Notes: generated by a model not told the origin, from the sequence alone. Counted from the first letter of the stretch, positions 1 through 52,519 are shown. The stretch is 53,713 bases of DNA from a virus (IMGVR_UViG_3300038393_000835:1-53713); one strand, 5' to 3'. Numbers and translations: made by a program.

Positions 1-562
1 AACGTTTCTTGGACCATTTCCCTTTTGAGTCTTTGAAACCATGAAGCATCGCTGTTAGGATCTTGTTGTTCTGAGCCTCTTTTGCTTTGAGCCATGCTTT
101 CACTTCCTTCTCAAATCGTGAAGCTGTTGGGTCAATGTACTTATCGGCAATCCGCTTTAGAGCTAAGGAATCCCCACCATCTCTAGTTGATATAGCTTCG
201 AAGGAGAGGCGGGCAAGACACATTGTATCGGCCCAGTTTTGAATAAACAGTGGAAACATATCATCCGTGTTGTTAGCGACCATGTGCATATCGTAAGAAG
301 TATTGTGAGCAAACACCCACTCTACTTGAATTGATAATTTAACGAGTATTCTTATCATATCTTCGGTTGCTTTAAAAACATAAACCACTCCATCCCAACA
401 TACTGCTGCTAGGAATGGCTTATCTTTTTTAATGTGTAAACCCGTAGATTCTGTATCAAAAGTAATCCATCTAGGTTTAGCTAACTTTAACATGTGTTCT
501 ATTTCATATTTATCTGATGTGTACTTTACTTCATAATCTTCTCCCGCAACGGTGAGGATCAT
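1..562 (-). CDS. polA: DNA polymerase I (family A), N-terminal part, second allele, truncated by window edge
   Basis: ATG at 562; manual translation MILTVAGEDYEVKYTSDK...WITFDTESTG...AHNTSYD is collinear with 50372..52519 at offset 51957. Confidence 0.9.
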   Translation of the reverse strand, partial: MILTVAGEDYEVKYTSDKYEIEHMLKLAKPRWITFDTESTGLHIKKDKPFLAAVCWDGVVYVFKATEDMIRILVKLSIQVEWVFAHNTSYDMHMVANNTDDMFPLFIQNWADTMCLARLSFEAISTRDGGDSLALKRIADKYIDPTASRFEKEVKAWLKAKEAQNNKILTAMLHGFKDSKGKWSKKR

Positions 563-1756
563 ATTTTCACTCCCTAGTTGTTATAATTTAGGCCCTTCTT
601 GGCCTAAAGGTATCATCTGTTGTTTCTGATATTCATTTCGGTAAGCTTTCAATGCTTTAGCTAATCGCTGTGTCGGCTGTAGCTTTCCTGCCGATGCCCG
701 AACTAGGGAATGTTGGATGAGTGTCTGAAGCACTCCCTGGAATTGTTCCCGGTCTAGCCCTGACAGCATTTGCAGATCCATAATACTCATGTTTTGACCC
801 TTCGCTAGTTGCTGCATCAACAACCTTTGCGAATTGATCAGACCAACTACCACATTATTCACTTGCGGGTTCGTGTAGTTATAGACTCTTTCCTGCTCTA
901 CGAATTTAGGAAGCTGGAAGATTTCATTATCGTAGCACTCTTTCAGGAACCAAGCAGCCCAATCGACATGTTCTTTCTTCACTAGAATTGATTCCCCTGT
1001 ACCATCGTGGCTGAAGCAGGCTCCCGCACACGCTACAGCGATTCTCGCTAGTTTGATAAAGGCTTCGGTCCCGAATAGCTTCACAGTAGAATGATACTGT
1101 TCGTTTAATTGCTTCGTTACTTGCCATGCGTAAGGCCCCACATTCTCATCAAATTTGACTTGATCTTTGGTTCTACTCCAGCACCAGTAAATCAAGTGAC
1201 GGTAAGCAGCGTTATCTTTTTCCTCATATTCTTCCTGATCGAATGGAGATATGATTTGATCTAACTCTAGATCTGGAAGGATGATAATGAAGTCGAAACG
1301 GGCGATATCTTCATCCATCGAAACCAATTCACGAACAATATCAATCCCATTCGCATAAGAAGCAATCGACTTTTCCGAACCGTCCCTAGGGGCTGGATTG
1401 GCGAACCAAATCATCCTCGTTTTAGCAGGAGCCCTACCGGACCCGGAAATCTTCTCGATCTTCGCTACCATTTCAGATCGAATGGCTGTTAGTTGACCGA
1501 TCATTTCCGGTTTCATCCCGGACATTTCATCCATAATGAGGAGTCCTTTATGGTTCTTCGGAATAATCCCCCATTTAGTACGAAACTGGCCCTTACTATT
1601 CCGATCCGCACCCCCAACCAACCCGGCAACACTCGCTAGTTTGAGGTTCGTTGCGTTTCCAATTCCGTAGAATCGTTGCATGAGCATCGCTGTTTTCGAC
1701 TTTCCTGTTCTAGAAGGCCCAATAACTAGAGGTTCTGGGTAGCCTTTTTCCTCTCT
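1..1756. repeat. Terminal overlap, copy 1 (imperfect direct repeat of 51958..53713)
   Basis: Offset is 51957 at the start, middle and end; first 127 nt identical, then many substitutions. Confidence 0.97.
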
Positions 1757-3433
1757 ACCGTTCACCTTAAAGCCTAAGACGGAGTGATAAAGGACATCTA
1801 CAGCATAAGCAACCATGCGGTGAGAGAAGGCCCCGACAACTTCCTTGGTATGCTCATATCGTTTTTCCATCATCACAAACGGATCGCCTTGGAATATAGA
1901 TAATTCTTTGATGATTTCAGGAGTCATGCGAAACGCATTGATGGAACTATCCGAAGTCTCGGCTCGATCAATGACCATGACCGTTTGCTGATTCTCGGTT
2001 GGATGCGGGTATCGTTTAAAGTAAATGCGATATCGTTCCCCGTCCTGTAGATCCATTCCAATCGTATATCCTACTAGTTCGGCCGGCCGGTAATCGGTCC
2101 ATTCTCCTTCTGATTCTACATCTGGAGAAAAGGCAATCTTATCCACATGCGTGTAATCTAGGATCTTCTGCTCTAGTCCGGGGCATCCTTTCGGAACTCC
2201 GATAAAGGATTTCAACGCATCTTTCTGTTGCTGTCTCGGTACGTCCGCAATTTCAATGAGCTTTGATAAGTTACTGTTATCAAGGAACCATGTTCCCGAA
2301 TCGTTTAGGTTTTTACCGCATAATTGACATGCTTTACTTTCTGGATTCGGTCTTGCACATCTCCAATCAAAAGCGGTTGGAATATCCGTCATCGTTTTAT
2401 CATAACGACCTTCCACAATAACCCGACTGGAGATATATTTATTGTGATACTCGACATGCGGTACTTCCCACAATTGAACTAGAGGATATTCACGGTCTTT
2501 ATCTTCTTGGTAAACATCATCCTGATAAGGTAAAGCTTCCTCTAGTTTTTGGTATAAATCCTTCGATGTGTGGTTATACTTTAGAAAGAAGTCGGTAATG
2601 TCCTTATCGTCTGGTGCTCCGCTAAGTCCCAGATCGACGAGATAGACAGTAGCTCCGGCTTCTTTTAGTTGTAAGGCAACTCTCCTAGCTCCATTTTTTC
2701 CGGCTTTGTCACAATCATAGCAAACGTAAACGGTTTTATCTTTGAATTTTCCTGCGAATAGCTTCGGGAGTCCGGCTCCTTCTCCTCCGGTGTTGGTTAT
2801 AGCGTTGAATCCATGTTGCCTTGCGAGGAGGGCATCATTTTCTCCTGCTACGAATAGAGTGGGATCGTTGCTCTTGGCCCATTGATCGTGGGGAAAGAGT
2901 AGATTAGTCGTACCTTTTTCGGATGTGATCTTTGGTCGATCTTCAGCTTTCCATTCTGGGTTATAGGTGCGTTTATCTAAGAGGAATCCTTCGACGTAGA
3001 TGGGGTATGTAATCCCCGAACCAAAATATCCTAGTTTGTATTCTTTAATTGTTTCTTCTGTCAGTCCCCGTTGTTCGGTGAGAAATTCAAGTAAGTGAGG
3101 TTGATCTTGTAAGTTTTCAACGCAGCGTATCCATTCTTCATCTTCTGATTTACCGTCAAACATCCCTAGATAATGGAGTGCGTCATGGTAGGTAATATTT
3201 TGAACTAGAGAAATGAATTTGACTTCTGACATTCCCCCTTTCGAGAATCGCCCTTCGGCTGCACAAGTCTTACAGTGAAAGACGTTATCCTTGGTATTTA
3301 CATGGGCTGAAGGGCGTTCTTCAAATCCTTTGCTGTGTAAGAACGGGCATAATACGTCAACTTCGCCATTTGGCTTAACTTCAAACCCACCCCGTTCGGA
3401 AAAATATGTCTCAAAATATGCTCCAGATCTCAT
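581..3433 (-). CDS. Primase-helicase: Zn finger + TOPRIM primase + MCM-like AAA+ helicase
   Basis: CPFLH..CKTC Zn finger; TOPRIM AGEND and YDCD; Walker A GPSRTGKS, ASVAGLVGG, Walker B LLIMDE, arginine finger ARFD resemble MCM motifs. Confidence 0.85.
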   Translation of the reverse strand: MRSGAYFETYFSERGGFEVKPNGEVDVLCPFLHSKGFEERPSAHVNTKDNVFHCKTCAAEGRFSKGGMSEVKFISLVQNITYHDALHYLGMFDGKSEDEEWIRCVENLQDQPHLLEFLTEQRGLTEETIKEYKLGYFGSGITYPIYVEGFLLDKRTYNPEWKAEDRPKITSEKGTTNLLFPHDQWAKSNDPTLFVAGENDALLARQHGFNAITNTGGEGAGLPKLFAGKFKDKTVYVCYDCDKAGKNGARRVALQLKEAGATVYLVDLGLSGAPDDKDITDFFLKYNHTSKDLYQKLEEALPYQDDVYQEDKDREYPLVQLWEVPHVEYHNKYISSRVIVEGRYDKTMTDIPTAFDWRCARPNPESKACQLCGKNLNDSGTWFLDNSNLSKLIEIADVPRQQQKDALKSFIGVPKGCPGLEQKILDYTHVDKIAFSPDVESEGEWTDYRPAELVGYTIGMDLQDGERYRIYFKRYPHPTENQQTVMVIDRAETSDSSINAFRMTPEIIKELSIFQGDPFVMMEKRYEHTKEVVGAFSHRMVAYAVDVLYHSVLGFKVNGREEKGYPEPLVIGPSRTGKSKTAMLMQRFYGIGNATNLKLASVAGLVGGADRNSKGQFRTKWGIIPKNHKGLLIMDEMSGMKPEMIGQLTAIRSEMVAKIEKISGSGRAPAKTRMIWFANPAPRDGSEKSIASYANGIDIVRELVSMDEDIARFDFIIILPDLELDQIISPFDQEEYEEKDNAAYRHLIYWCWSRTKDQVKFDENVGPYAWQVTKQLNEQYHSTVKLFGTEAFIKLARIAVACAGACFSHDGTGESILVKKEHVDWAAWFLKECYDNEIFQLPKFVEQERVYNYTNPQVNNVVVGLINSQRLLMQQLAKGQNMSIMDLQMLSGLDREQFQGVLQTLIQHSLVRASAGKLQPTQRLAKALKAYRNEYQKQQMIPLGQEGPKL

Positions 3434-3455
3434 CGGTTTCCCCTTCTTTCTCTAA

Positions 3456-3552: not shown

Positions 3553-4200
3553 TTAATGACTATAAAAAGATTCCCATTTTTTAAATTTATAACTATCGTA
3601 TGTTCCATGAGAATGCTTTTTAATTTTATAATAAACTAGATAAGCGTCTTTCTTTGATAATTGAAAGTATACCGTTTTTGATGTTCCTGTTGAATTATAT
3701 ATTTTGTTAGGTTCTTTATTAATTTGAGAACATATCCAAGTATACACTTCTGAAATTAACGGATATCTTCCAGCTATTGATACCATTCCTTTATAAACGT
3801 TTCCGTCACCGTCGAATAATCCTTTAATAAATGACCATTTATATTCTTCAGGTACGAAACCAAACGGATTTCTTAGATCCTTGTCACCTATAACATTTAT
3901 TCTAGAAAAGAAACTCATAATGTGAGGACTAGAAAGTATTAGATATCCTACAGGTTTTTTTCCCAATCTTCCTTTTGTATCTTTTGTTACGTATACTTCC
4001 TTATCAGCTTCAAAAACATTTCGTGCAGCCTCTAATAAATCCAAATCTGTATTGTAAATCTTAAATTCGTTAGGTCTAGATTTGCTTCCAACACTTCCGT
4101 CTGCGGTTACTAATCCTAAAACCCAAGAATTATTTATAGTCCATTCGTCAAATATCATATGATTCAGGTATAGAGCCAATTTGTTTCTTCCCCTTATCAT
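3553..4200 (-). CDS. Free-standing LAGLIDADG homing endonuclease
   Basis: WVLGLVTADGS and FIKGLFDGDG motifs; ATG at 4200 follows GGAGG (the track's 4209 start lies inside the RBS). Confidence 0.9.
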   Translation of the reverse strand: MIRGRNKLALYLNHMIFDEWTINNSWVLGLVTADGSVGSKSRPNEFKIYNTDLDLLEAARNVFEADKEVYVTKDTKGRLGKKPVGYLILSSPHIMSFFSRINVIGDKDLRNPFGFVPEEYKWSFIKGLFDGDGNVYKGMVSIAGRYPLISEVYTWICSQINKEPNKIYNSTGTSKTVYFQLSKKDAYLVYYKIKKHSHGTYDSYKFKKWESFYSH

Positions 4201-4272
4201 GAAAACCACCTCCTAAGACCTATTTTACCATAAGTCTTAGGGATGGTAAATCATTTTATTAATTTAGGTAGA

Positions 4273-5656: not shown

Positions 5657-6701
5657 TTTCTTTCTCCTCCCTTGTATATAAAGCATCCACTAAAAAGTTT
5701 ACATCACTTCCATCGAATCCGGCTACACAAATATCTTTGTACTGACAATCCCAACTACAGTCATTTGTAATATTCCGGTAAGCAGCTTCCTTCACTCCTC
5801 GTTCTAACCATTTACGTAAGTCTTTCAAATCCATAGCCGTGTAGTAAAATTCTTCAATCGAAGCATCTATCTCCGGTTGAAGTCGGTGTACTTCCACTCG
5901 ACGGAAGAATTCTCTAGGTGTTTGCTTTAAGTAATCGATAATATCTTTATAATCATCTGGAGAAAATCCTAGATCGTCTACAGCTTTCATAAATAAGTTA
6001 TAAGTCGTTTTCTGATTCTTCGCTTTCGATAAGCTACCATCCTTTAAGACTTTTGGAGGTTCTGGGTAATCTTTAAGGATGATATTGTACACAAAGCCGA
6101 CAAGTGGTTTACCGTTAAGACGAGGTTGGAATACTGTTGCTGGATGTTTGTTTCCGTTTTTGTCATATACATAACCCTTTCCATTTTGGATTTGTTGTAA
6201 AGCCCACCAATATCTAGAGATTTGACGGTCCATCACTGAGTTTTTCTCATATTTATCTAAACTAGCGGTTGTTTTGTGGTCCATGAAATAAATCTTACCG
6301 TCTAGTTCGTAAACCAAATCAATTGTACCTGTGAATGTCACATGTTCATCTAAAGGGATCTCAAATCGTAGCTCGGTCGCTAAGACTTTCCAGTTTTGAT
6401 CGTTTTCCCACCAATGATTATAATAATTATCAGCAACAGTTTGAGCCATGAGCCATAAATCGTCTAGTTCTTGTTGATAAATACTTGAAGTATCAGTCTC
6501 ACGGAACATCCTAACCATTTCTTCATTTGCTGTTCCTTGTTGCCCGTTATTGTACAAAACCTCCAAAAACCTGTGAAACAACGTCCCGAAAAACAACTTA
6601 TCATTCTGCTTCTTTGGGATCAGTCCATCATGCCAACGATAAGACCATCTTTTTCTACATCTTAAAAAATCATTAATTTCTGAACCTCTAACCGTTACCA
6701 T
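5649..6701 (-). CDS. PD-(D/E)XK exonuclease (RecB/Cas4-like, probable Fe-S cluster)
   Basis: SEINDFLRC..W, GTIDLV, DHKTT, C-terminal CSWDCQYKDIC. Confidence 0.85.
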   Translation of the reverse strand: MVTVRGSEINDFLRCRKRWSYRWHDGLIPKKQNDKLFFGTLFHRFLEVLYNNGQQGTANEEMVRMFRETDTSSIYQQELDDLWLMAQTVADNYYNHWWENDQNWKVLATELRFEIPLDEHVTFTGTIDLVYELDGKIYFMDHKTTASLDKYEKNSVMDRQISRYWWALQQIQNGKGYVYDKNGNKHPATVFQPRLNGKPLVGFVYNIILKDYPEPPKVLKDGSLSKAKNQKTTYNLFMKAVDDLGFSPDDYKDIIDYLKQTPREFFRRVEVHRLQPEIDASIEEFYYTAMDLKDLRKWLERGVKEAAYRNITNDCSWDCQYKDICVAGFDGSDVNFLVDALYTREEKENV

Positions 6702-7197
6702 TACTTACCTCCCTAAGTTTATTTTCAAACGCTTTATAAGCTTCTTCAGGAGTGTCATACAAACCTAAATAAATTCTTTTATAATTTAATTTAATATGTG
6801 CTTGCCATTTATTTCTTCTACTTTCCCAGCTAACTCCTCTATATCCGCTTTTACTTAATGGATTAGGACCTAAACGATTTAACCCGTTTTCAGACTTTGT
6901 TGCTATTCTTAAATTCATCGATCTTCTATTATCTAACGTGTTATGATTTAAATGGTCAACGTCCTTTGATCTATCATTTATATCCATTAAATATCTATGA
7001 ATATAAATTGCACTTCTTTTACCAGTTTTTCTAGAAGTATGTCCCCACACATATCCTTTAGGATTTACAAACCATGTGAAAGGAAATTGTTTAGTTTTTT
7101 CTAAATCCGAAGTATCAATTAAACATTCATAAGTAATACCTTTTCCTTTTACAAATATCGCAGTAACATTTCCTCTAACTTCATAAGAATTTTTCAT
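6688..7197 (-). CDS. HNH-AP2 homing endonuclease
   Basis: VDHLNHNTLDNRR.NLR plus SGYRGVSW...W.A.I AP2 domain. Confidence 0.9.
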   Translation of the reverse strand: MKNSYEVRGNVTAIFVKGKGITYECLIDTSDLEKTKQFPFTWFVNPKGYVWGHTSRKTGKRSAIYIHRYLMDINDRSKDVDHLNHNTLDNRRSMNLRIATKSENGLNRLGPNPLSKSGYRGVSWESRRNKWQAHIKLNYKRIYLGLYDTPEEAYKAFENKLREVSNGNG

Positions 7198-11489: not shown

Positions 11490-11638
11490 AGGAAAATCCT
11501 CCTTTAATTTACTATATGTTATTGTATGTGCTATGTTGCATGTCAGAACTAGGGAAATTCTCTAGCTCTGAAATACATCCGAAGTGATTGTTTGTATTAT
11601 ATCGCACTTCGGAATTGTATTCAAGTATTGACTTTCAA

Positions 11639-12070
11639 CTATATACCACTGCTACCAAATCCTCCGGTGCGTTCCCCTTCTGCTTGATCATCGTCAGCAA
11701 CTAGGAAAGGCATGAAAACCGCCTGGGCTATTCTATCGTGAATATTAACAATAAATATTTCGTCACCATGATTCATTAATAATACGCCTATTTCTTTTCC
11801 TTCATAGTCCTTATCTACTGTACCGGGAGTGTTTAAAACAGTAATCGTATAATGTAAAGCTAAACCAGACCTAGGCCGGATCTCTACCTGTTCACCGGGT
11901 AGCATATACGCAGTTAAACCTGTTTTAATTAATGTCCACTTTCCAGGATGAATGACCGCTGGTTCAATTGCATGAATATCGTACCCGGCAGATTCACGTG
12001 TAGACCTTGTTGGTAAAATTGCGTTTTCATTTAACTTTCTAAAACCTCTAGTTCTTACTAATCCTTTCAT
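11639..12070 (-). CDS. dut: Trimeric dUTPase
   Basis: SAGYDI, RPRSGLA, GTVDKDYEG, RIAQ, RTGGFGSSG. Confidence 0.96.
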   Translation of the reverse strand: MKGLVRTRGFRKLNENAILPTRSTRESAGYDIHAIEPAVIHPGKWTLIKTGLTAYMLPGEQVEIRPRSGLALHYTITVLNTPGTVDKDYEGKEIGVLLMNHGDEIFIVNIHDRIAQAVFMPFLVADDDQAEGERTGGFGSSGI

Positions 12071-12575
12071 CTAAAAACCTCCATTTATATCCTCTTGAAC
12101 TTTTTGCTATACCTCTTGCAACTAAATCGGCAGCCCAATATCCTGCTATTTTTGCTTCTAAAATACTATCCCACACTTTAACTACTTCATTTGTTATCGG
12201 ATCTATTTGTTCTATTTTACGTTTTCTTTTATTTCGATCCTCTACATAAATTCCTCCTTTAACCGCATGTTGCATGTTTTCAAGATTAGTACAATATTCC
12301 AAGTTATCAATATGGTTATTTGTTTTATTAAAATCTTTATGATTGACTTGTAAATCAGACTTTCCTAAAAATGCTTCAGCAACTACTCTATGAACTAGAT
12401 AACTTTTTCTTGTTTCTTTTCCTCCATTATAAAAAGTAACTGCTAAGTATCCTTTCGGTCTTGGTGACTGTTTTAAAAATCTTTTACTTTTCTTTCTTCT
12501 TATGTTTCCGTAAGAAGAAACTTCGTAAAAATCTTCCCAATCCGTAACATCTCTCCAAATTTCCATTTTGCACAC
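12048..12575 (-). CDS. NUMOD4-HNH homing endonuclease
   Basis: EIWRDV...YEVSSYGNIR, VHRVVAEAF, VNHKDFNKTNNHIDNLEY. Confidence 0.9.
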   Translation of the reverse strand: MCKMEIWRDVTDWEDFYEVSSYGNIRRKKSKRFLKQSPRPKGYLAVTFYNGGKETRKSYLVHRVVAEAFLGKSDLQVNHKDFNKTNNHIDNLEYCTNLENMQHAVKGGIYVEDRNKRKRKIEQIDPITNEVVKVWDSILEAKIAGYWAADLVARGIAKSSRGYKWRFLDERISKN

Positions 12576-13017: not shown

Positions 13018-13103
13018 CTTTAACCCTCCCTAGGTTTTAGCCTGTTTATAGGCTTTGTGGGAACTAGGAGGGATTGTTTTCCTAGTTCGTGAAAGGCTAT
13101 AAA

Positions 13104-16796: not shown

Positions 16797-17197
16797 TGTT
16801 AATCGAAATGCTCAAAAAGAACCAACAGTTCAACGAACTCCCAACACCAAAACAAGAACTATTCGCTATCCTAGCTATCAAATTCGAAGAAGATCCAACC
16901 GCTATTTACTTAACACCGGACGAACTAACACAACACACCAACACGGGAAACAAGGATCTATGGGTACAATTCCTAGCTCTGCCCCCCGTCAGCCAGTTCA
17001 TCAAAGCAGAAATGGCCCGACTCACAGACGTAGCCCAGCGTAAGGCCCTCAAGTCCCTACAGGCTCAGGCCATGTCAGGGAACGTTGCTGCTGCAAAAGA
17101 GATTAATGATTTGGCAGGAATATACCTTAGTCAGAATAACAATCGTACAGTAGTCCTTCATCAGATTAGTCGTCCTAAAGTAAAGGAGGTTAAATAA
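16796..17197 (+). CDS. Probable terminase small subunit
   Basis: First large late gene; A.SGNVAAAKEI motif typical of TerS. Confidence 0.6.
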   Translation: MLIEMLKKNQQFNELPTPKQELFAILAIKFEEDPTAIYLTPDELTQHTNTGNKDLWVQFLALPPVSQFIKAEMARLTDVAQRKALKSLQAQAMSGNVAAAKEINDLAGIYLSQNNNRTVVLHQISRPKVKEVK

Positions 17198-24556: not shown

Positions 24557-24601
24557 GACACACCTCCTATCTCTAGTTTACTGCTAGTCGTTTATAAAAT
24601 A

Positions 24602-30345: not shown

Positions 30346-30357
30346 GGAGGGGAAAAC

Positions 30358-32550: not shown

Positions 32551-32591
32551 AATCAAATAGATTCAATCTTTCATAGAAAAGGAGTGATACA

Positions 32592-35018: not shown

Positions 35019-35033
35019 AAAGGAGGATAAACC

Positions 35034-35288
35034 ATGAAAATTGTATATGAACTGATCGAAGGTAAACCGTTCATGAACAATCCAATTCTGATTGAAAATG
35101 ATGCGGAGATTCCAGAAGGGCATGTGGAATTGGATCACTCCAAATCATATAAGGAAACTGGGGAGGAACTATCTCTAGTTGAATTGGATGCGATTCGTAA
35201 TACTCCAGTGAAGAAGTCTGAAGTACGTTTGTTGCAAGAATCCCAGGCGAAGATCCTGTTGATGCTTGCTAAAAACAACATTAAATAG
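35034..35288 (+). CDS. Tail fibre chaperone-like protein
   Basis: Lies between the fibre gene and XkdX. Confidence 0.55.
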   Translation: MKIVYELIEGKPFMNNPILIENDAEIPEGHVELDHSKSYKETGEELSLVELDAIRNTPVKKSEVRLLQESQAKILLMLAKNNIK

Positions 35289-42407: not shown

Positions 42408-42740
42408 CAGTTCAATCAGCTTTTTCAAGTACCATTCCGATTTTTTCAAATCTTGCAAGCCATTCTTGAGGCGGTATCTAAGGGTGTACTTTAGTATATT
42501 ACCCTTGAGAAATCCCTCATATTCTTCAGGTGTTAATTGATCCTTTAGAATGTCGATTACTTCTAGGTTTCCTGCTGTGTAATGAGGGGGTTGATTGACC
42601 ATATCTACTTTTTGTTTATTTATAATTTCCTTTAGTTCATCATACGTAACCATTTGAACTTTTCCAGTTTGATGAATTTCACAAAAACTAGAGTCAGTCA
42701 TAGTTACATATCCGCAACTGGCAATTCCGCATTTAGGCAT
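42393..42740 (-). CDS. DUF3310 (SaV-like) protein
   Basis: DMVNQPPHY, GFLKGNILKY..R...KNG.QDLKK..WYL. Confidence 0.85.
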   Translation of the reverse strand: MPKCGIASCGYVTMTDSSFCEIHQTGKVQMVTYDELKEIINKQKVDMVNQPPHYTAGNLEVIDILKDQLTPEEYEGFLKGNILKYTLRYRLKNGLQDLKKSEWYLKKLIELKKTL

Positions 42741-43362
42741 CCTTCTTCACCCCCGTAATAAACTCCGAATATGGTAACGACTCAGCCCACTCTCGAAACT
42801 CCTGCCATTCTGATAAGCGATGCCCTTTACGATCATGGTAAGCATTGGCGATTGTTGCGTAGTTCAATGTTGTGGTACGCTTTTGCATCCAACCTGAAGG
42901 GAGTAACTGTATAAGAAGTTTCCAAATGCGACGATCTTTAGTTTCTAAAAACATATTTCGGAGCATTTCTAAATCCTTAAATAAAGGAATAGTTATGGGT
43001 TCATGGCTATCTTCAAGAGAAAATAATTCAGGAGTCATTTCCTTCCTTTGAATCGTATGCATAGTGCTCTCGCTGTTCGTAACAATAAATTTATATTGAT
43101 CCATCTCTTTCCACCAATACAAGGGAGCATTGATATCTACACAAACCATGACTTGTCTCATCCATTTGGCATGGCTTCCCCCAGCCTTCGCTAGTTTGAA
43201 TAAAAGGGCGTGGTCGTTAGGACCGATGATAAACTCAGGATCGCAACAAGAGCATTCGTTTTTCCAATAGCTATCCGATTTATCATGACTTTCCCAGCTA
43301 TTTCTAGCCCCTCTTATGGCTCCTTTAAAGTTGAACACTTCGGTTTCCGTGAACTCAATCAT
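42733..43362 (-). CDS. ThyX-like flavoprotein-fold protein
   Basis: AIRGARNS...HAKWMRQ..DINAPLYWWKEMDQY...NSESTMH...LLPSG; canonical RHRx7S motif absent. Confidence 0.55.
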   Translation of the reverse strand: MIEFTETEVFNFKGAIRGARNSWESHDKSDSYWKNECSCCDPEFIIGPNDHALLFKLAKAGGSHAKWMRQVMVCVDINAPLYWWKEMDQYKFIVTNSESTMHTIQRKEMTPELFSLEDSHEPITIPLFKDLEMLRNMFLETKDRRIWKLLIQLLPSGWMQKRTTTLNYATIANAYHDRKGHRLSEWQEFREWAESLPYSEFITGVKKDA

Positions 43363-43736
43363 TTATTTCTCCCCTTTTCAATTAGGCAATAGTAGTGTAT
43401 CCGACAGTACCCGTGTCCGAAATGTCTGCTGTCACAGTCAGGTAGTTTACATTTTTTATTGGCAATCGATCCCTCCGGCCTACCTCCTCCTGTTCCTTGT
43501 TTAAGAACAATTGTAGGATCTCCGTGATTCAGCCACCGTCTATAGTGCATGTTACAGTAACCTCTAGATTTATAATCCGTTCTTTCGCATCCCTCAACGG
43601 TACAGGGACGCTCCTTGCGTATGTACACTTTCTTCGGTTTCTCCGGTTGGGGTTTAGGCCGGGACATAAAATGGTCCCGACACAAACCTTCATCCCAACT
43701 AGGGAGATTGCAGCCCTCCATCTTGCACGTTTTCAT
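43359..43736 (-). CDS. Protein of three Cys/His metal-binding repeats
   Basis: C-x3-GC...G.C..H repeated three times. Confidence 0.7.
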   Translation of the reverse strand: MKTCKMEGCNLPSWDEGLCRDHFMSRPKPQPEKPKKVYIRKERPCTVEGCERTDYKSRGYCNMHYRRWLNHGDPTIVLKQGTGGGRPEGSIANKKCKLPDCDSRHFGHGYCRIHYYCLIEKGRNK

Positions 43737-44058
43737 TATTCTCAGCCTCTTTCGCTAGTTTTTCTACACAAAACTTATGGAAGTAGCTAAGAACGGCACG
43801 AATTCCTGCTGAACTGGTTGCAAACCCATCCTTAACTAATTCATTGAAGATATAGTCTACAGCATCGTCGGTGCAAACCGTATCCTCAACCCCTAGTTCA
43901 AATTCTGTTGTTTCGTCGAAATCACTTTCATCTAAGTAGACGTAATTGACTTCTTGGCAGTTATGACATTCAACACTCAATTCAATTTTTCCGCTGTAAT
44001 CCTCCATTCTTACCGCCTCCATATCTGAGATAAAAAATTCCATGGCGTATACTATCAC
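43699..44058 (-). CDS. Acidic hypothetical protein with CxxC
   Basis: In operon; true start probably the second or third Met. Confidence 0.65.
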   Translation of the reverse strand: MIVYAMEFFISDMEAVRMEDYSGKIELSVECHNCQEVNYVYLDESDFDETTEFELGVEDTVCTDDAVDYIFNELVKDGFATSSAGIRAVLSYFHKFCVEKLAKEAENNENVQDGGLQSP

Positions 44059-44485: not shown

Positions 44486-44551
44486 CTCTTATCTCCTCCC
44501 TAGTTAGTATTATTATATCACCTGATATGTATTATGGAAAGAAATATTTTC

Positions 44552-44843: not shown

Positions 44844-44975
44844 ATGTGGGGAAAGTTAGCTCAATACGCAACCATTCTTGTTTTCTTAGAGTGGTTAGGT
44901 AGGCAAGGACTGTTTGGACTTAGAGGAACGGGGGTGTTGACATGGTTCTGGGAACTCTTATTGGTGCATCTATGA
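44844..44975 (+). CDS. Small membrane peptide, 43 aa; not in ORF track
   Basis: AGGAGGG RBS; MWGKLAQYATILVFLEWLGRQGLFGLRGTGVLTWFWELLLVHL. Confidence 0.7.
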   Translation: MWGKLAQYATILVFLEWLGRQGLFGLRGTGVLTWFWELLLVHL

Positions 44976-46282
44976 TCGCTCCGGCTATTATTTATCCTCT
45001 CTTGGATTCTCCAACAAAGCGATTCAAACAAAAGCTCTACTACACCTTTAGTTCTTACGACATGCCGGACATTAAGATCCTGGAAGTTTACAAAACGGAT
45101 TATGGATTCAAAGCGAACATCCAATTACCTCACGGATTACCGCACTCAGACTTCATGAAAGAACTAGAGGGGATAGAGCAATCAATGATGGCAAAGATTC
45201 GGGTGAAGCGGGGAGTAGGCCGGATACTTCTCCTTGATTTCGGGATGCTTTCTCTAGATAAGAAGATTGACTATGAAAGAGTACCCAAACAAGGAATGAA
45301 AATCCCTCTAGCTACCCCATTCGGATTCATTCATATGGATTTTACGCATATGGTCGGCGGGGGAGCTACGGATATGGGGAAAACAGTTCTTCAGTTACTC
45401 ATCGCCACTCACCTATACATTCAATCCAAAGGAACCATTGATCTCATCATCTCCAGCAATAAAACAGCCGACTACTACATGTTCAAAAACCTACCCAACG
45501 TTACTCTAGTTGAATCCGATGAAACCTTAAAGCAGCTAAAAAGAGTGGTGAAAGAATACGAAAAGCGGAAAGAAATCATTAATGAACTAGGGAATGTCAA
45601 TGACCATAAGACTCTTCGAGAGAAATACCCCGATAAAGCCTTTCAACCGATTTACGTGATCATTGATGAGTGCGGGGTGTTCTCCGAAGATAAAGATGTG
45701 AAAGAGCAACTAACCGAAATTGCAGAACGAGCTCGATATGTAGACATTCATCTTGTGTTGTTTTCACAAAGACCAGATGTGAAAGTTTTAAATGAACGCA
45801 TTAAGGCGAATCTATTAACGAGGATAGCATTAACGACAGCAAGCGATAAAGATTCCAGGATTATACTCGGTATGGATGGAGCTGAAAAACTGGGAGGAAT
45901 TAAAGGAAGGGCCATTTTGCTTGAGAGTTTACCTGTAGAAGTTCAAATCCCATACCTATCAAACGATACAGCCGAAAGGTTATTAAGGAGTGTTAATCAT
46001 GACAGACAGGGACGAATTGATCATCCAAAAACTGAAGCAGTTTCGAGTCCTGAGCCGGGACCAGATTGGTTCGATAGTATGTTCGGATCTAGCGAGACCG
46101 TGGGCAACCGTGAACCGGATCATGAAACGGTTAAGTCGGGATGGGCTTTGCTTGCCGATCCCCCAACCCAAAGACAAACCGTATCTCTACATGCCGAACC
46201 CCGCATTCATACACACGCAAAGCAGCCGGATACAACACTTCCTGGGATTAGTCGACATCTACCTATTGTTAGGGAAGCCTGA
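44942..46282 (+). CDS. FtsK/SpoIIIE-family ATPase with N-terminal membrane anchor
   Basis: HMVGGGATDMGKT, YVIIDE, FSQRPD, IKANL..RI, GAEKL..IKGRAI. Confidence 0.92.
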   Translation: MVLGTLIGASMIAPAIIYPLLDSPTKRFKQKLYYTFSSYDMPDIKILEVYKTDYGFKANIQLPHGLPHSDFMKELEGIEQSMMAKIRVKRGVGRILLLDFGMLSLDKKIDYERVPKQGMKIPLATPFGFIHMDFTHMVGGGATDMGKTVLQLLIATHLYIQSKGTIDLIISSNKTADYYMFKNLPNVTLVESDETLKQLKRVVKEYEKRKEIINELGNVNDHKTLREKYPDKAFQPIYVIIDECGVFSEDKDVKEQLTEIAERARYVDIHLVLFSQRPDVKVLNERIKANLLTRIALTTASDKDSRIILGMDGAEKLGGIKGRAILLESLPVEVQIPYLSNDTAERLLRSVNHDRQGRIDHPKTEAVSSPEPGPDWFDSMFGSSETVGNREPDHETVKSGWALLADPPTQRQTVSLHAEPRIHTHAKQPDTTLPGISRHLPIVREA

Positions 46283-46671: not shown

Positions 46672-47684
46672 TCAGCGAACGCCACAAGCTCCGTTAGCAC
46701 AATTCGGGTCTTCAATATCCTCATCAATATCTTCAGGATTCTCTAATCGGTTCAACACATTCATATCAAACGGAGCCATAGCAGCCTTTAATTCTTCGAA
46801 TTTCTCTTTCGTAATTGCCTCAAGTGGTGCGAGCTGATAGCTATGCCCCGAATAAGCGAGAAAACTAACGGCTGTGAAATCATCCCACTTACTGTAAACA
46901 ATTTCCTCAGCTTTCGCCCATTCCCCATCTTTAATGTCAATGGTATTAGAAGAGTTGTGACGGGTATAGTATTTTTGGAAATCAAAATAGGTTCTGAACT
47001 GTTCTTCAACATTCGAATCCTCCTTACTACGTTTAGCACCACTAGCAATTGGGAATTCTATAACTAGGGTACGTGCATTCGCTAGTTGTTCCTCTCTAGT
47101 TGCCCCCGGAGTCCCAACTTCAGGATGCACCAACCACCCTAGTTCTTGAACGGTTTTTGCTAACGGGTCCATCGCATTGATGCGAATTCTACGGATGTAG
47201 TAAGGTGAATGCGACAAATGCAAGCCAGACGACACAGGTGATTTCGTTATTGGATTTACCGCAACTAGGGATAAGGTTCCTTCCGGCTTTACGGTTGTAT
47301 CCAATAAAGGTTTACTAATGCGTAATTCTGAAGAGTATCGTTCCACTTCTTCTTTTACAGCTAGGGATAGCATACGAAGTAGGTCACGTTCAGCCTCTAG
47401 ATCATATCCAAGAATCGCAATCGCATCTTTCCAACCGGTTACGGATGTTCCAATCAGACGATCCGTGGATTGAACCTTTGCCCAGCCTTTCGGATCTTTA
47501 CTCCACGGCATACTCTCTAGTTCTACCAAGGTCATACGCATTCCAGCTCGAGCAGAAAGCTTCTGAGCATTGATCAATCCTGCGATATTCAACACATACT
47601 TCCCAGCTACTTCATGAATAAAGGCCGTTACGTTAATAGTTGTTAGGTTACAAACGCCTCGAGAACGAAGATCGATTTCGGCAC
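46672..47684 (-). CDS. nrdJ: Class II (B12-dependent) ribonucleotide reductase, exon 2
   Basis: After splicing reads CAEIDLRSRGVCNLTT; TTVKPEGTLS; C-terminal CANGACGVR. Confidence 0.9.
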
Positions 47685-48569
47685 CACTTATGTTACGAAC
47701 TAGCCGATTCCGCTAGTTCTCTCTAAGTTTCCCTAGAGGTCAGACTATATCACGTACAGGATTCCATTTGTATAAGAAACTTTCTACAGGACATTCAGGA
47801 AGTTTTTTATAAAATTTATCAAACATACTTTGTTTGATAGCAATTCTATTTCTATCCGCAACCCTAGTCTCAATATCGTACCAATTAAACAACATGAGTT
47901 GCAATTCCTGAATTTCCGTAGCGTTATATCTGTCAGTACAAAACATTATTCTCACAGGTTTACCTTTCAGGTTTACTACATATCCATCTCCGATAAACCA
48001 TTGAAGCATAGCGTTAGGTGTTAAAACAAAATCATTAGGAATAGCTTTTCTTCTTTTACCTTCCTCATCGTATTCATACCATATTTGCTCTAGTTCTCTA
48101 AAAGCTGGGTAGAATTTAGTTTCGATCATATAAGATTCCTTTGAACCAGGAAAGCTTCCTCTATAGGCTTCTTGAATTTTAAACTCAATACCTTCAGCCT
48201 CAAATAACTTCCCTAGATATTCAATGTAATCTAGATTCATGTTCTTAACTTGTAACGATGCGGAATGTTTACTTTTCCTATTGTTTGTTAAATGACCATC
48301 GCCTAACATTAGACCTTCAAAATGTGAGACAAAGCTTCTTGACAGATTAAGTTCCTTAAAGAAATGAGCCATTCTGTACCCTCCCGTTTCGAACTCTCTT
48401 GAGTCCTACTCTACTTCCTTCTATTGTAGCATTCTATTAGTATCTCCACAATAGGGTTTCGATAGTCGTTGAACCTTCCGATTTCTCGGCTTGGCTGCTG
48501 ATTGTCCTCGGCTTTACGTTAGGAGTTTCCAGCAATTAAGGAGGTTTTACATCCGCTATGCTACTTTTA
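47685..48569 (-). mobile_element. Group I (IA-type) self-splicing intron in nrdJ
   Basis: Exon AUCCGU pairs with IGS GCGGAU; P AAUUGCUGGAAACUCC, Q AAUCAGCAGCC, R UCAACGACUA, S GAUAUAGUCUG; terminal G at 47685; removal restores NP-C-AEI. Confidence 0.93.
47740..48372 (-). CDS. Intron-encoded LAGLIDADG homing endonuclease
   Basis: FEGLMLGDGH and QWFIGDG; lies between R and S, and its stop overlaps S. Confidence 0.92.
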   Translation of the reverse strand: MAHFFKELNLSRSFVSHFEGLMLGDGHLTNNRKSKHSASLQVKNMNLDYIEYLGKLFEAEGIEFKIQEAYRGSFPGSKESYMIETKFYPAFRELEQIWYEYDEEGKRRKAIPNDFVLTPNAMLQWFIGDGYVVNLKGKPVRIMFCTDRYNATEIQELQLMLFNWYDIETRVADRNRIAIKQSMFDKFYKKLPECPVESFLYKWNPVRDIV

Positions 48570-49905
48570 ACGGATTCATAAAGATTTGTTCCATCATATC
48601 TTCAATCATCGCTTCGGTTGGGTTATCAATTCCCATCCCTTTCAATCTGCGAACCGCTAATTCTCTAAGGTTTACAAAGCCCGGTTCACCCTCACGTTGC
48701 ATCATTTCGAACACAAGATTCAGGACTCCCCTAGTCGGCTTCTTTGTAAAAGCAATTGAATTATTTGACATTCTGCGATGGTGCAGCGGTCTAGCATTCG
48801 GGTCCATTAGGGTAAGACTCTCTAGTTTAGCAGCCCACTCCGTATTACCCATTTCGTATAACTTACGAATAACTTTGTCGTGTCCCTCTTGGTCCCAAAT
48901 TCCGTTAACGCCATACTTCGCAAATACACACTCCCAATCGACTTCAGGATCGTCACCAATACCGAAAATTTCGGCAGTTCTGCGAACTCCTCCCACAACT
49001 ACATTATAGCCAATACAATTTCCCATATCTAAAACATGGATCGGTCTTAGCTGTACATAACCTGGAGCCACTTCAACCGGATCGTCTAGGAATGTGTCCA
49101 CTTTGTTTTTAATAATACTTTCAAACGACTGGAACATCTCAATCATCGGTTCGGCCCCTGAAGCGGTTCCACCGAAGGTCTTTAATCGCTCCCCATTTTT
49201 GCGTACATAATCATAGTTGATCTTCAGCACATTTACATCTGCGTACTCTTCCTGGATATGAACATCTAGGAAATATTTAAGGGCTGTTACCCATCCTTCC
49301 TTCGAATCGCCTACGTAGATCGTTACGGTATCCCCGTTTCGTACTATTGACGAGTCTGCTACTTTGATGGTAGGGTATAGGGAGTTGTAAGGGTCATGCT
49401 TAATTAACAAATTATTGCGAACAGGCTCTAGCTTTGCAGCCATTTTCGGAGTACATTTGAAGCCGACACCTACGCCTACAAGCAAGTTATAGAATAACTC
49501 AGTAAGATTATAGAGCGAGTCAATTCCAACATAAGAACAGTTAAAGTTAGCCATTGGATACTTTTCAGCCACACTATTGTCAGCCCCACCCACCCAAAGG
49601 GTTCTTCCTGATAAGAACTGGCGAAGATTAAACATTTGGTCAAACAAATATTCTGCTTCCGTTCTCAGTCTTGCAAGAATATCTACAGACAAGTCACCAT
49701 ATAATTCTACTAAGTGTTTGTAAGCGAGGGAAACATTGTATTGAGCAGCCCGACATGCTGTCTCTTTCCAGGTTTCCCTTCTCTTTTTAGATGGCAAATA
49801 ACGTGAATAGGTACGCAAATAAACAAAGGTACTAATCTCCGATTGATGTTCAGGGAAATCAGGATACTTCGCTAGAAATTCCTCAGTTAATAATTGGATC
49901 GACAC
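48570..49905 (-). CDS. nrdJ: Class II ribonucleotide reductase, exon 1
   Basis: VYLRTYSR..RETW, SGRTLW, FNCS, GGTASG, GGVRRTAEI, RRMSNNS, GEPGF; GTG at 49905 after AGGAG. Confidence 0.92.
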
Positions 49906-50001
49906 GTAAATTTCTCCTCTCATAAAAAGCGTGGTAACTCTACTTATTCGACGTTGACCACGCTATTTCCTTCTGTATTTAAGAATAAATTCTGGAATCT
50001 A

Positions 50002-50340
50002 TCAAGAAACTTCTTTAATGATCGCTAGCACTTCAGACTTTGTCTTATAATCCTCTGTAAAATGCATTAGGTTATATTGTCTTGGACTTGGATTATCTGG
50101 ATCAGTAGATTGACACCCTTCTCGATTTAATTCTTTTTGAAATTTTTCGTGTGGACACCATTTCAATCCGCCCCATGAAATCCACTTTGACTTTGAACTT
50201 TCCACTTTAGTTATTTCAAGAGACTTACCTGTATTCCGCTTAGCAATCCATAAGTATTCATCTAACTGCATTTTCCAAGGTTTATAGGAGTCTCCAAATA
50301 ACATAATAGAGTCATCTGTAAAAGTAACTCTTACAATCAT
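50002..50340 (-). CDS. Hypothetical protein between nrdJ and polA
   Basis: AGGAGGTG RBS; AT-rich. Confidence 0.7.
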   Translation of the reverse strand: MIVRVTFTDDSIMLFGDSYKPWKMQLDEYLWIAKRNTGKSLEITKVESSKSKWISWGGLKWCPHEKFQKELNREGCQSTDPDNPSPRQYNLMHFTEDYKTKSEVLAIIKEVS

Positions 50341-50371
50341 GAGTACACCTCCTTTCTATTAAATGTTGAAT

Positions 50372-52519
50372 CTAATGAACCTTGCGTTTCTCAGCCCAAT
50401 TTGTTGATGTGAATTCCACTTCCGCAACGATCGGGACCATGATATCGGTTGTTGACTCCATAATCTCTTTGATCTTAGGAACTAACCAATCTTCATTTTC
50501 CGGTATTTCAAACTGTAATTCATCGTGAACGCATAGGATCATCTTCGCTTTACAATCGTTTTCTGTAAGCAGCCGATCAATTTTAATCATTACTTCTTTC
50601 AGAATATCTGCTGACGTACCTTGGATTAAATAGTTCCCAGCTTTGTAGAATTTCCGTGAATCTGAAATGTAGTATCTTCGACCACGCATATTAACCACAT
50701 AGCCCTTTCTCATGCCCTCCGATACCTTATCTTGATACAATACAACTAGAGGAAACGCATCTGTATAACCCTCTGCCATCGCTATAGCTTCTTCTAAGTC
50801 TATTTCTAAAACTTCCGCAGCCATTTTAGGACCTCCCCCGTAGTTTCTCATAAAATTGAACGTTTTACCCAACGATCTCCAGCTTTCTAGCTGTTCTTCC
50901 GTTAGCTTGCTGGCATCAATCTCTAGTTTATCTAAAGCTTTTAAGGTAGTAGCTAGGTGAACATCTGTGGCAACCCATGGGGTTCCATCTTCCATCAACC
51001 AAGCCGATACCTCCCCATTCTTTTCATTCCATCGGGATCTTCCTTCGACAGTCTTATAATCGTAGATTTCACCTGATTGAAAATGTCGGCATCCGAAAGG
51101 CATGTATGCTCGGCACAAATTTCGATCTCCTCCGAATGGGATCGTATAATGGCCTTGCACCCGCAGTTCAACTTGACTGTAATCGAGGTAATAGATTCGT
51201 CCGGTAAACGCTCGACGAGGGTGAAAGAGTTCAAATTCGGCTGGTGCTGACTTAGGACCATTTTGCTTTTCATGAGCATCCCCTTCTAGAGTTAATAGTC
51301 GCTTCTTCGGGAACTGTTGGGCATCGCCACTAAAACGTCCCGATACTGGATTGAATTGGTTCATCTGGGAATAGAATCGTCCATCGTATTCCGATACATC
51401 TAGAATGCGTTCAATGTAAGTCGCTTTCCATTTCTCAAGGGTTCTCATTTTGTTAATGATCTTCGCTAGTTCGGCCCCATCAGTTCCTTTCATCTTCTGC
51501 ATCTTCTTCAGGAACTTTTTATCCGTGGATTCCGGTTCCTCACCTAAAATTGACTCATAGATCTTTTTGATCTTGGCATGCTGCCCGACATTGAATTCCA
51601 TACCCGCTAGAAGATGCATTTGAATCGTCAGATCGTTGATATAATCCTCTAGCTTCTTATTCGATTCCACTAAGTAATCCCGATCAACGGCAATTCCGGC
51701 CCTCTCCATTTTCCATACAACGGGGATTAGGTCAAATTCACGCTTCATTACCTCTAGTTGCTGGCGATATTCCACAACGGGAAGTGACTTACGAACGAGG
51801 ATGTTAGTCAGAATCACATCGACAGCTAGATAAGGAATCATGATCTCTAGTGGTACATCTTGATAGGTTGGTTTCGGGCATTCTTCTCTCCAGTTGTTTA
51901 GAATATCGAGAACTTCTTGCGGAATCGGCTCCGTACCATTGTTCAAACCATCGGTTAAACGTTTCTTGGACCATTTCCCTTTTGAGTCTTTGAAACCATG
52001 AAGCATCGCTGTTAGGATCTTGTTGTTCTGAGCCTCTTTTGCTTTGAGCCATGCTTTCACTTCCTTCTCAAATCGTGAAGCTGTCGGGTCAATATACTTG
52101 TCGGCAATTCGCTTTAATGCAAGACTGTCGCCTCCATCCCTAGTTGATATGGCTTCAAAGGAGAGTCGGGCGAGGCCCATAGTATCTCCCCAGTTTTCAA
52201 TAGCTAACGGTATTGAATCTCCTACAATATTTGCTACCATGTGCATATCGTAAGAAGTATTATGAGCATAAATTCTTTCGACTGAAGAAGCCCAACCATA
52301 TAGCATCCCTAACATAATTTTATTAGCGGGGAAAACAAAAACCTTTCCGTCCCAACATATAGAAGCTAGGAAAGGTTTATCTTTCTTAATGTGTAGCCCA
52401 GTAGTTTCCGTATCAAACGTAATCCATTTAGGACTGTCTTGCATTAACTTCATAGATACTAATTCTACATCATCTGTATAAACCACTTCATAATCTTCTC
52501 CCGCAACGGTGAGGATCAT
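50372..52519 (-). CDS. polA: DNA polymerase I (family A) with 3'-5' exonuclease
   Basis: FDTETTG, AHNTSYD, SGRFS, LDYSQVELR, R..GKTFNF..NYG, NYLIQGTSAD, VHDEL. Confidence 0.95.
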   Translation of the reverse strand: MILTVAGEDYEVVYTDDVELVSMKLMQDSPKWITFDTETTGLHIKKDKPFLASICWDGKVFVFPANKIMLGMLYGWASSVERIYAHNTSYDMHMVANIVGDSIPLAIENWGDTMGLARLSFEAISTRDGGDSLALKRIADKYIDPTASRFEKEVKAWLKAKEAQNNKILTAMLHGFKDSKGKWSKKRLTDGLNNGTEPIPQEVLDILNNWREECPKPTYQDVPLEIMIPYLAVDVILTNILVRKSLPVVEYRQQLEVMKREFDLIPVVWKMERAGIAVDRDYLVESNKKLEDYINDLTIQMHLLAGMEFNVGQHAKIKKIYESILGEEPESTDKKFLKKMQKMKGTDGAELAKIINKMRTLEKWKATYIERILDVSEYDGRFYSQMNQFNPVSGRFSGDAQQFPKKRLLTLEGDAHEKQNGPKSAPAEFELFHPRRAFTGRIYYLDYSQVELRVQGHYTIPFGGDRNLCRAYMPFGCRHFQSGEIYDYKTVEGRSRWNEKNGEVSAWLMEDGTPWVATDVHLATTLKALDKLEIDASKLTEEQLESWRSLGKTFNFMRNYGGGPKMAAEVLEIDLEEAIAMAEGYTDAFPLVVLYQDKVSEGMRKGYVVNMRGRRYYISDSRKFYKAGNYLIQGTSADILKEVMIKIDRLLTENDCKAKMILCVHDELQFEIPENEDWLVPKIKEIMESTTDIMVPIVAEVEFTSTNWAEKRKVH

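Follow-up and report, generated by a model that had tools for sequence, protein, structure and literature searches.

A selected, lineage-specific DNA word in a 52-kb soil phage genome and its candidate phage-encoded readers

Does a short DNA word that recurs throughout a phage genome act as a signal, and what would read it? The question is raised by the virus record IMGVR_UViG_3300038393_000835, which we analyzed over its whole length of 53,713 bases (the window). The original prediction had described a genome-wide, strand-biased excess of C[CGT]CTAGTT in this DNA and proposed that the word is a selected cis signal: a priming site for the phage primase, an orienting signal for a phage FtsK protein, or a binding site for a DNA-coating protein. 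Our results showed that the enrichment of the word is real, selected, phage-intrinsic and lineage-specific. Its reader is most likely encoded by the phage and not by the host, and a primase–helicase of the phage is the candidate that we favour.

The word is in large excess

The window is a whole IMG/VR record, classed as linear and estimated by CheckV to be complete. Because its first 1,756 bases recur at 51,958–53,713, one unit is about 51,957 bases long. The two end copies are 87% identical (1,767 aligned columns, 203 mismatches, 18 gap openings), and the contig seems, judging from the sequence, to run round a genome that is circular or permuted and to join two strain variants that occur together. 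The guanine–cytosine (GC) content is 39.5%, slightly above the 38% assumed earlier.

In the window, CNCTAGTT was found 77 times on both strands taken together, as compared with a mean of 5.67 (S.D. 2.08, maximum 11) in 100 dinucleotide-preserving shuffles, none of which reached 77. The unit contains 71 of these CNCTAGTT/AACTAGNG sites, which corresponds to an approximately ten-fold excess and a density of about 1.3 per kb. The strict word C[CGT]CTAGTT occurs 49 times on the plus and 19 times on the minus strand of the unit, in close agreement with the 49 and 18 tallied previously, and the twelve positions that the original prediction named as examples are all among the computed sites. By variant, the plus/minus counts are 23/10 for CTCTAGTT, 16/7 for CCCTAGTT and 10/2 for CGCTAGTT. 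The statement that the variable base is almost never A was also borne out, as CACTAGTT accounts for only three of the 71 unit sites.

Under a third-order Markov model, no other 8-mers of the genome deviate as strongly as AACTAGAG (33 copies versus 3.1 expected) and AACTAGGG (23 versus 2.3). Flank statistics gave a consensus on the purine strand of approximately (G)AACTAG[A/G/C]G(A), and looser forms were likewise in excess (CTCTAGCT, 12 copies; CTCTAGAT, 11; TCCTAGTT, 14). When broadened to YBCTAGHT, the word is found 159 times in the unit. The genome contains 289 copies of CTAG, where approximately 185–194 would be expected overall; since the 130 copies outside the broad word fall below that expectation, the CTAG excess is wholly due to the word.

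The excess lies in the DNA and not in the codons

Genes were called as longest open reading frames (ORFs) rather than with a gene finder, and were annotated by PHROG and Pfam scans. To control for coding effects, we performed 200 shuffles of each of three kinds. The mean plus/minus counts were 12.5/4.4 when synonymous codons were shuffled within genes, 20.3/6.9 when third positions were shuffled with the next base kept, and 10.2/3.6 when codon order was shuffled; the maxima (28/12) all remained below the observed 49/19. These means include 9/2 intergenic copies that shuffling cannot move. For the coding sites alone, 57 were observed versus approximately 5.8 expected under synonymous shuffling. 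Each of the eight possible frame and orientation classes was enriched (5–22 fold), as were both orientations of the word (5–14 fold), and the minor orientation was approximately seven-fold enriched in coding DNA. Since all frames and both gene orientations are enriched, the signal is in the DNA and not in the codons. A codon or peptide artefact was thus ruled out by the three protein- or codon-preserving shuffles together with the per-frame counts. Of the two outcomes that the original prediction had named as refuting it, loss of the enrichment under such shuffling and an orientation that follows only the coding strand, neither was observed.

Related phages carry their own versions of the word

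About 25 related loci were collected by PolA and FtsK-like searches of IMG/VR, with eight whole records. The exact word of the window, CNCTAGTT, was not enriched in G001, G002 or G003 (9 versus 10, 1 versus 0 and 5 versus 8 copies of the word versus control, respectively). De novo k-mer scans showed that the relatives carry a word family with the frame CT-RRRG-AA, whose enriched members were as follows (GC content; observed versus expected copies).

G309 (0.40): AACTAGGG, 16 versus 1.7; AACTGGGG, 15 versus 0.8; AACTAAGG, 11 versus 1.4
G001 (0.56): AACTGGGG, 23 versus 1.7; AACTAGGG, 8 versus 0.4
G310 (0.40): AACTAGGG, 27 versus 1.3; AACTAAGG, 15 versus 1.6
G311 (0.35): AACTAGGG, 11 versus 0.9; AACTAGAG, 13 versus 1.3
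G312 (0.49): CTGAAGAA, 41 versus 4.9
G003 (0.40): ATCTAAAG, 19 versus 3.4
G002 (0.43): ATCTAAAG, 11 versus 1.6
G313 (0.39): AACTAAGG, 16 versus 3.1

Nearly the same word is therefore found in genomes of 35–56% GC. The scans detected no enriched word in the Paenibacillus phage API480 or in the IMG/VR loci L016–L019. Synonymous shuffling of five relatives again placed the excess at the DNA level and in all frames (G309, 24 versus 2.75; G310, 23 versus 0.9; G001, 28 versus 3.8; G312, 39 versus 6.9; G003, 16 versus 3.8).

Sites are also retained at the same orthologous codon position and in the same orientation between proteins of approximately 50% identity. This was the case for 11 of 129 sites between the window and G309 (0.16 expected), 6 of 99 between the window and G001 (0.15), 8 of 67 between G309 and G001 (0.1), and 5 of 101 between the window and G310 (0.1). 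Between the two end copies of the window, six of seven sites are kept, against a background of 0.49 (p = 0.057), and the seventh has a C to T change at its first base. The proposal of a selected cis signal is thus supported by frame and orientation independence, by positional conservation, and by the lineage versions of the word; the excess persists in exact k-mer counts against both Markov and codon-preserving expectations.

To consider the host, we used the endolysin, whose best genomic matches are in Desulfosporosinus and Desulfitobacteriaceae (55–60% identity), which makes Desulfosporosinus a lead, based on sequence similarity, for the host. The word occurs 207–288 times per approximately 5 Mb in five Desulfosporosinus genomes, below the 536–705 copies of a reversed-word control, and the highest density read from the table for 301 genomes of that phylum, Bacilli and Clostridia left out, was approximately 0.12 per kb, compared with 1.3 per kb in the phage. 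Given this rarity in the candidate genus and the 301 phylum genomes, the word is not a host word of the Chi type there. The window and G309 have the same GC content (0.40) and endolysins that are 82% identical, yet their word spectra differ: AACTGGGG, for example, has one copy versus 0.8 expected in the window, and 15 versus 0.8 in G309. For this reason the reader is most likely phage-encoded. The scarcity of the word in the likely hosts, its differences between sister phages and its maintenance by selection point the same way.

Two observations on CTAG and on related words were made in passing. The relative L018 (20,159 bases) has no CTAG at all where base composition predicts approximately 71, the opposite extreme to the window inside one phage group. 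In phage T7 (L159), ACCTAAAG occurs by the same statistic 18 times versus 2.3 expected, with 15 copies on the plus strand; it does not belong to the promoter consensus, and it resembles the ATCTAAAG of G003.

The strand bias is moderate and mostly regional

The 49:19 distribution of the strict word departs from equality (binomial p = 3.6e-4). For sites in coding DNA the ratio was 40:17, compared with a plus-strand share of 0.59 expected from shuffles (p = 0.105). The broad word showed 101:58 overall, but 39:6 between 16 and 36 kb (p = 5e-7) and 62:52 elsewhere (p = 0.40; 27:27 in 0–16 kb and 35:25 in 36–52 kb). The polar block is the following feature.

15929–35968, plus strand: module of small genes, terminase, portal, capsid and internal virion protein, with the pyrimidine form mostly on the coding strand

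This block adjoins a divergent region at approximately 15.5–16.8 kb; because the assembly wraps, the ends of the record need not be the physical ends of the genome. The polarity is thus real but moderate, mostly regional and concentrated in one block of the window. The strand bias of the original prediction stands for the overall count, but its statement that the bias holds in both plus- and minus-transcribed blocks is only weakly true.

The pyrimidine form lies 32 times on the coding and 29 times on the template strand, and genes on the minus strand have the purine form more often than the pyrimidine form on their coding strand. Because the orientation does not follow the coding strand, stoperator-, promoter- and RNA-level readings were ruled out. 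Among the relatives, G001 repeated the pattern of the window, with 19:4 across the head genes of its first 18 kb and a nearly even ratio thereafter; the genome-wide ratios were 39:16 in G309, 29:17 in G310 and 16:20 in G311. The overall skew was 63–74% among genomes, with none in G311.

A primase–helicase as the favoured reader

We consider it the best explanation, although with a probability of only about one in three, that the word provides preferred priming or loading sites for the following protein.

581–3433, minus strand: primase–helicase of 950 aa, the candidate reader, with a CHC2 zinc ribbon, a Toprim domain (DnaG-type), an MCM-like AAA+ domain and a C-terminal winged helix

On this explanation the word, generalized over the lineages to (G)AACT[A/G]G[A/G]G(A), would be a positively selected cis-acting signal for a phage-encoded machine, a replisome protein in which a DnaG-type primase is fused to an MCM-like helicase. 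Copies would serve as preferred RNA-primer start sites on the single-stranded template, at the embedded d(CTA) or d(CTG), or alternatively as loading sites for the primase–helicase. Both strands would carry sites because both are lagging-strand templates, and the excess on one strand would reflect the prevailing fork direction. Among the three mechanisms proposed originally, priming fits best, as a DnaG-type primase is encoded and the core of the word is CT[A/G]; priming itself is putative.

The protein is conserved across the whole phage group. It matched the PHROG family for DNA primase (E 3.9e-17) and Toprim_2 (23.8 bits, above the cut-off), and Zn_ribbon_DnaG at 23.8 bits, just under the cut-off of 24.9, with the CHC2 pattern visible in the alignment. 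A structural model of residues 691–950 (mean pLDDT 76.7) contained lid-like helices and a confidently modelled C-terminal winged helix. In Foldseek searches the best fold matches were MCM3, MCM7 and MCM4 chains, and winged helices of the ArsR/MarR type matched the last approximately 90 residues; E-values were weak (1e-3 to 0.1), with probabilities up to 0.9–1.0. If the sites serve loading, the modelled winged helix is a possible double-strand reader. The combination of a bacterial-type (DnaG) primase, an MCM-like helicase and a C-terminal winged helix is itself worth describing.

Several observations favour this protein. In every lineage the enriched word has, on the purine strand, an invariant core of CTA or CTG in the same position. 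Both, like d(TTA), are described as trinucleotides at which DnaG primases begin synthesis, on the middle base (PMC2978363). The phage resembles such systems both in the d(CTA)/d(CTG) inside its word and in encoding a zinc-ribbon primase of the DnaG type. The variable residue of a G[M/L]SE motif after the zinc ribbon is M in four of four genomes with a CTA word and L in four of four with a CTG word. After masking of the word and removal of the transcription-linked part of the GC skew, the strand with genome-wide G excess carried most of the purine form in six of seven genomes (G003 was ambiguous). By the usual rule, the G-excess strand has the leading-strand sequence and is the lagging-strand template; the polarity of the purine form would thus agree with placement on that template, under the assumption that the sign of GC skew marks replication. 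The site densities, one per 1.1 kb on one strand and one per 2.7 kb on the other, are on the scale of Okazaki fragments. The cryptic base of the word and the four bases on its 5' side are also arranged like the pentamer sites of T7 primase.

A number of findings weigh against the primase–helicase. Known DnaG-type primases read 3–5 bases and would not need an 8–10-base word to be enriched, let alone approximately ten-fold. The T7 primase pentamers are near expectation in T7 (GGGTC, 94 versus 74; TGGTC, 141 versus 139; GTGTC, 85 versus 70), and T7 was therefore rejected as a precedent for enriched primase sites. API480 and L016–L019, in which no enriched word was found, encode orthologous primase–helicases (31–47% identity). 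The residues equivalent to the beta4 pair, which sets DnaG specificity (PMC2978363), showed no co-variation with the word. The M/L co-variation represents only about two to three independent contrasts on the primase tree, and the relatives that lack the word carry either residue. Site spacing is Poisson-like (coefficient of variation 1.17), which also ruled out regular spacing of the word, and a bias confined to 16–36 kb is not predicted by a single fork direction. Finally, the sign of GC skew as a marker of replication is an assumption for a phage replisome.

Alternative explanations

After the primase–helicase we rank another double-strand DNA-binding protein of the phage, which is a tentative possibility, then an FtsK-like translocase, which we regard as unlikely, a host Chi-like signal, which is still less probable, and an absence of function, which is very improbable. 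The first of these would be a sequence-specific protein that binds the word in either orientation and perhaps serves to label the genome as the phage's own or to organise, tether or coat the DNA; the strand bias would be a secondary effect of coding or expression constraints. Such a protein would account for the enrichment of both orientations, the Poisson-like placement and the balanced orientation outside 16–36 kb; 8–10 specified bases are a typical size for a protein–DNA site, and sister lineages have drifted apart in their word spectra, as is expected of a site and a reader that co-evolve. The many small early ORFs (9–16 kb) without a family match leave room for it, but no candidate protein can be named, and a gene-family comparison revealed no family that separates word-rich from word-poor genomes: DUF3310, the sole family in five of five word-rich and none of five word-poor records, is present in the word-less L016–L018. 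The polarity in the window, in the first 18 kb of G001 and in G309 would also need an extra assumption.

The FtsK-like candidate is encoded as follows.

44942–46282, plus strand: FtsK/SpoIIIE-like ATPase of 446 aa (PHROG 1358, E 9e-50), the rival candidate reader

Its N-terminal stretch is hydrophobic, as judged by eye from the alignment, and all 24 family members have the PF01580 motor domain. The word would orient or load a membrane-anchored translocase, in the manner of FtsK-orienting polar sequences (KOPS), SpoIIIE recognition sequences (SRS) or the TraB recognition sequence (TRS), possible roles being to draw the late-gene end of the phage DNA into the cell or to move phage DNA directionally. 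Ring translocases of the FtsK family read 8-bp, G-rich, polar words. The phage word is similarly 8 bp, purine- and G-rich, dispersed and polar, and each of the most strongly enriched genomes carries an FtsK-like gene. The 20-kb block with 39:6 polarity fits as well, and the word read as pointing into this block ends in TAGGG or TAGAG, resembling the NAGGG end of KOPS. The evidence on the other side weakened this part of the original prediction. The gamma winged helix PF09397 was detected in none of the 24 family members at E<=1, and an alignment of the window's protein with that of G001 showed low conservation in the tail behind the motor; the absence of a gamma domain, together with the enrichment of both orientations, argues against a KOPS-like signal. 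The non-preferred orientation is enriched rather than depleted, and the skew is weak or regional and absent in G311. A comparison of phages with and without the gene, which had been suggested as a check, came out on both sides: in a first tally, with kinship uncorrected, an at least two-fold excess of AACTRRRR was found in 8 of 15 FtsK-bearing and 0 of 7 FtsK-less loci (Fisher p = 0.022), but the FtsK-less G002 and G003 have a related word (4–7 fold enriched), and six FtsK-bearing loci (L049, L052, L053, L060, L061 and L063) have none in approximately 12–21 kb. One of the 24 members, the metagenome homolog P0010, contains a Replic_Relax domain (PF13814, E 7.8e-9), a sequence match that hints at kinship with DNA-transfer ATPases of plasmids or integrative and conjugative elements.

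It could also be that the word is a Chi-like signal of a host nuclease of the AddAB/RecBCD type, accumulated by the phage as it is by Chi-rich lambdoid phages. The word skew of approximately 72% is similar to that of Chi in E. coli, and the purine form lies on the G-rich strand. Chi-rich phages such as LLS and P1 are the closest documented kind, with an oriented host signal as the commonest 8-mer (23 sites in LLS, one per 1.86 kb, 20 of 23 in one orientation; 50 in P1) (PMC12315714). What they share with this phage is that the commonest 8-mer is at least approximately ten-fold over chance, inside genes, mostly in one orientation and at around 0.5–1.3 per kb. The difference is that the word there belongs to the host and is abundant in its chromosome, whereas the phage word is under-represented in all five Desulfosporosinus genomes and never abundant in the 301 genomes of that phylum, a comparison for which the host was inferred from the endolysin identity alone. 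Chi-rich phages are also described as characteristically devoid of their own recombination module (PMC12315714), while this phage has one (Sak4-like annealase, exonuclease and single-stranded DNA-binding protein, SSB). Moreover, the version of the word is particular to each phage lineage here, sister phages differ in word spectrum despite equal GC content and near-identical endolysins, and nearly the same word occurs across the GC range of 35–56%. Without a function, the excess would be a side effect of biased mutation or repair, of a preference for certain codon pairs or of base composition. CTA is in fact an unusually common Leu codon here (22%), and the third-position shuffle with next-base context lifts the expectation to 20.3/6.9; however, the observed counts exceed all 200 context-preserving shuffles, all frames and both orientations are enriched, CTAG outside the broad word is not in excess, sites are kept at orthologous positions, and close relatives of similar composition lack the word.

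Comparison with other repeated words

Uptake sequences (DUS/USS) occur approximately once per kb and inside genes in all frames, as does the phage word. HIP1 of cyanobacteria has a similar density and is likewise found inside genes in all frames, and its function is reported to have been long unknown (PMC5861425). These are words of cellular genomes, and nothing here points to an uptake system. In contrast to the palindromic HIP1, the phage word is asymmetric, and its palindromic join, AACTAGTT, has no copies. Approximately ten would be expected by an independence estimate, but since most CTAGTT copies belong to the asymmetric word this estimate is inflated, and we drew no conclusion on avoidance of the join. 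The stoperators of cluster A mycobacteriophages are similar in that dozens of copies of one asymmetric site are found in a genome of approximately 50 kb; they differ in being 13–14 bp long, mostly intergenic and oriented with transcription, whereas the phage word lies inside genes with the nearly even coding/template distribution given above.

Much work has been done on the oriented, over-represented words of bacterial chromosomes (Chi, KOPS, uptake sequences, HIP1), and in Chi-borrowing phages the reader belongs to the cell. A literature search found no description of such a phage-intrinsic word, most subscription journals being outside its coverage. It is conceivable, though we hold this with some doubt, that the word is a genomic 'zip code' of 8–10 bases at 1–3 copies per kb, read by a phage-encoded DNA machine with which it co-evolves; this machine may be the primase–MCM-like helicase or, less likely, the gamma-less FtsK-like pump. 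If so, sister phages in the same host would use different versions (AACTAGAG, AACTGGGG, AACTAAGG, CTGAAGAA and ATCTAAAG), and replication or DNA handling would select the phage genome in preference to the DNA of the host and of competitors. With the primase–helicase as reader, the replisome would have an unusually long template specificity, and the pair would be a naturally co-evolving enzyme and site and a handle on how phages discriminate self DNA; with the FtsK-like protein, translocation would be sequence-guided without a gamma domain. The word spectrum is a simple computable trait that could sort uncultured phages into lineages and help to choose proteins for binding tests.

Placement of the sites along the genome

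The end copies, the gaps and clusters of the word, and its closely spaced or gene-proximal copies are listed below.

1–1756: left end-overlap copy, seven word sites
51958–53713: right end-overlap copy, six word sites
29722–35172: largest stretch free of strict sites (5.46 kb), over two tail genes (30358–32550 and 32592–35018)
47062–47144: densest cluster, four strict sites (47062 minus; 47080, 47094 and 47137 plus), in the 3' part of the split ribonucleotide reductase gene
47062/47080: convergent pair 18 bp apart, within the densest cluster
13062–13087: convergent pair AACTAGGA ... TCCTAGTT, an inverted repeat with a 9-bp stem, between called genes
11547–11567: convergent pair AACTAGGG ... CTCTAGCT, an imperfect inverted repeat, intergenic
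572–579, minus strand: copy that overlaps the PolA ribosome-binding region, AACTAGGGAGTG-N5-ATG
52529–52536, 24571–24578, 43753–43760 and 44498–44505: same arrangement of word and ribosome-binding region

The tail gene at 32592–35018 has the strongest PHROG match among the scanned proteins of the window (E 6.8e-153) and may for this reason be a recent import. The original prediction had placed copies in hairpin stems and at many ribosome-binding sites. Hairpins do occur but are rare, with three convergent pairs at most 20 bp apart in the window, all forming inverted repeats; the relatives contain a few further pairs, including one in G309 with a 12-bp stem followed by a T run. The ribosome-binding sites were overstated: the word lies at most 30 nt upstream of only 5 of 67 called gene starts, and two of these five are the two copies of the PolA start.

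Gene content and variation of the phage

Apart from the plus-strand FtsK/SpoIIIE-like gene at 44942–46282, the annotated genes fall into two blocks.

42.4 kb through the wrap to 15.4 kb, minus strand: PolA, the primase–helicase, SSB, Sak4-like annealase, exonuclease, SNF2-type helicase, dUTPase, ribonucleotide reductase split by a LAGLIDADG gene, and many small ORFs
16.8–42.2 kb, plus strand: terminase, portal, capsid, internal virion protein, tail genes and endolysin

The closest cultured relatives by PolA are the Paenibacillus phages API480 and SV21 (approximately 41–42% identity), and megablast against cultured phages gave no DNA match for the window. DNA of the window is present in 11 soil and rhizosphere runs from 11 studies, with the public runs that contain the phage available as contigs.

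Eight genes of the homing-endonuclease type, six HNH and two LAGLIDADG, were identified at the following positions.

3553–4209
6688–7197
12048–12575
17197–17691
23354–23866
24134–24556
43359–43736
47740–48372

None of the eight had a tblastn match in G001–G003 or API480, so that the load of selfish genes appears unusually heavy. The ribonucleotide reductase gene (46672–49923) consists of two pieces that flank the LAGLIDADG gene. In a contig of run X11, position 47662 is joined to 48572 with 24 other letters in between, a sequence that suggests an insert-free variant of the reductase. Contigs of three of four runs skip 412 bases at 49981–50394, with 19 other letters in place, which deletes a gene for a 112-aa protein (50002–50340; PHROG 32581, unknown function) and thus represents a presence/absence variant in the population.

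Certain palindromes are avoided in the window (GGATCC, 0 versus 15.4 expected; CTTAAG, 0 versus 11.1; CTGCAG, 0 versus 7.6; AGGCCT, 0 versus 4.0), in a way that looks like restriction avoidance. No avoidance of the restriction–modification type was seen for the word, which is enriched, whereas GGATCC, CTTAAG and CTGCAG are absent. The CGCG- and GCGC-based 6-mers ACGCGT, CCGCGG, CGCGCG, GCGCGC and AGCGCT also have no copies, but their Markov expectations are near 0, suggesting that the four-base cores CGCG and GCGC are themselves rare in the window.

A protein of 209 aa (42733–43362, minus strand) lacks Pfam matches and shares 79% identity with its G309 counterpart, far more than the approximately 50–57% of its neighbours. 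In a protein atlas it lies next to viral clusters, one of which has Thy1/ThyX in 10% of its members, and this gives a lead towards a thymidylate-synthase-like enzyme.

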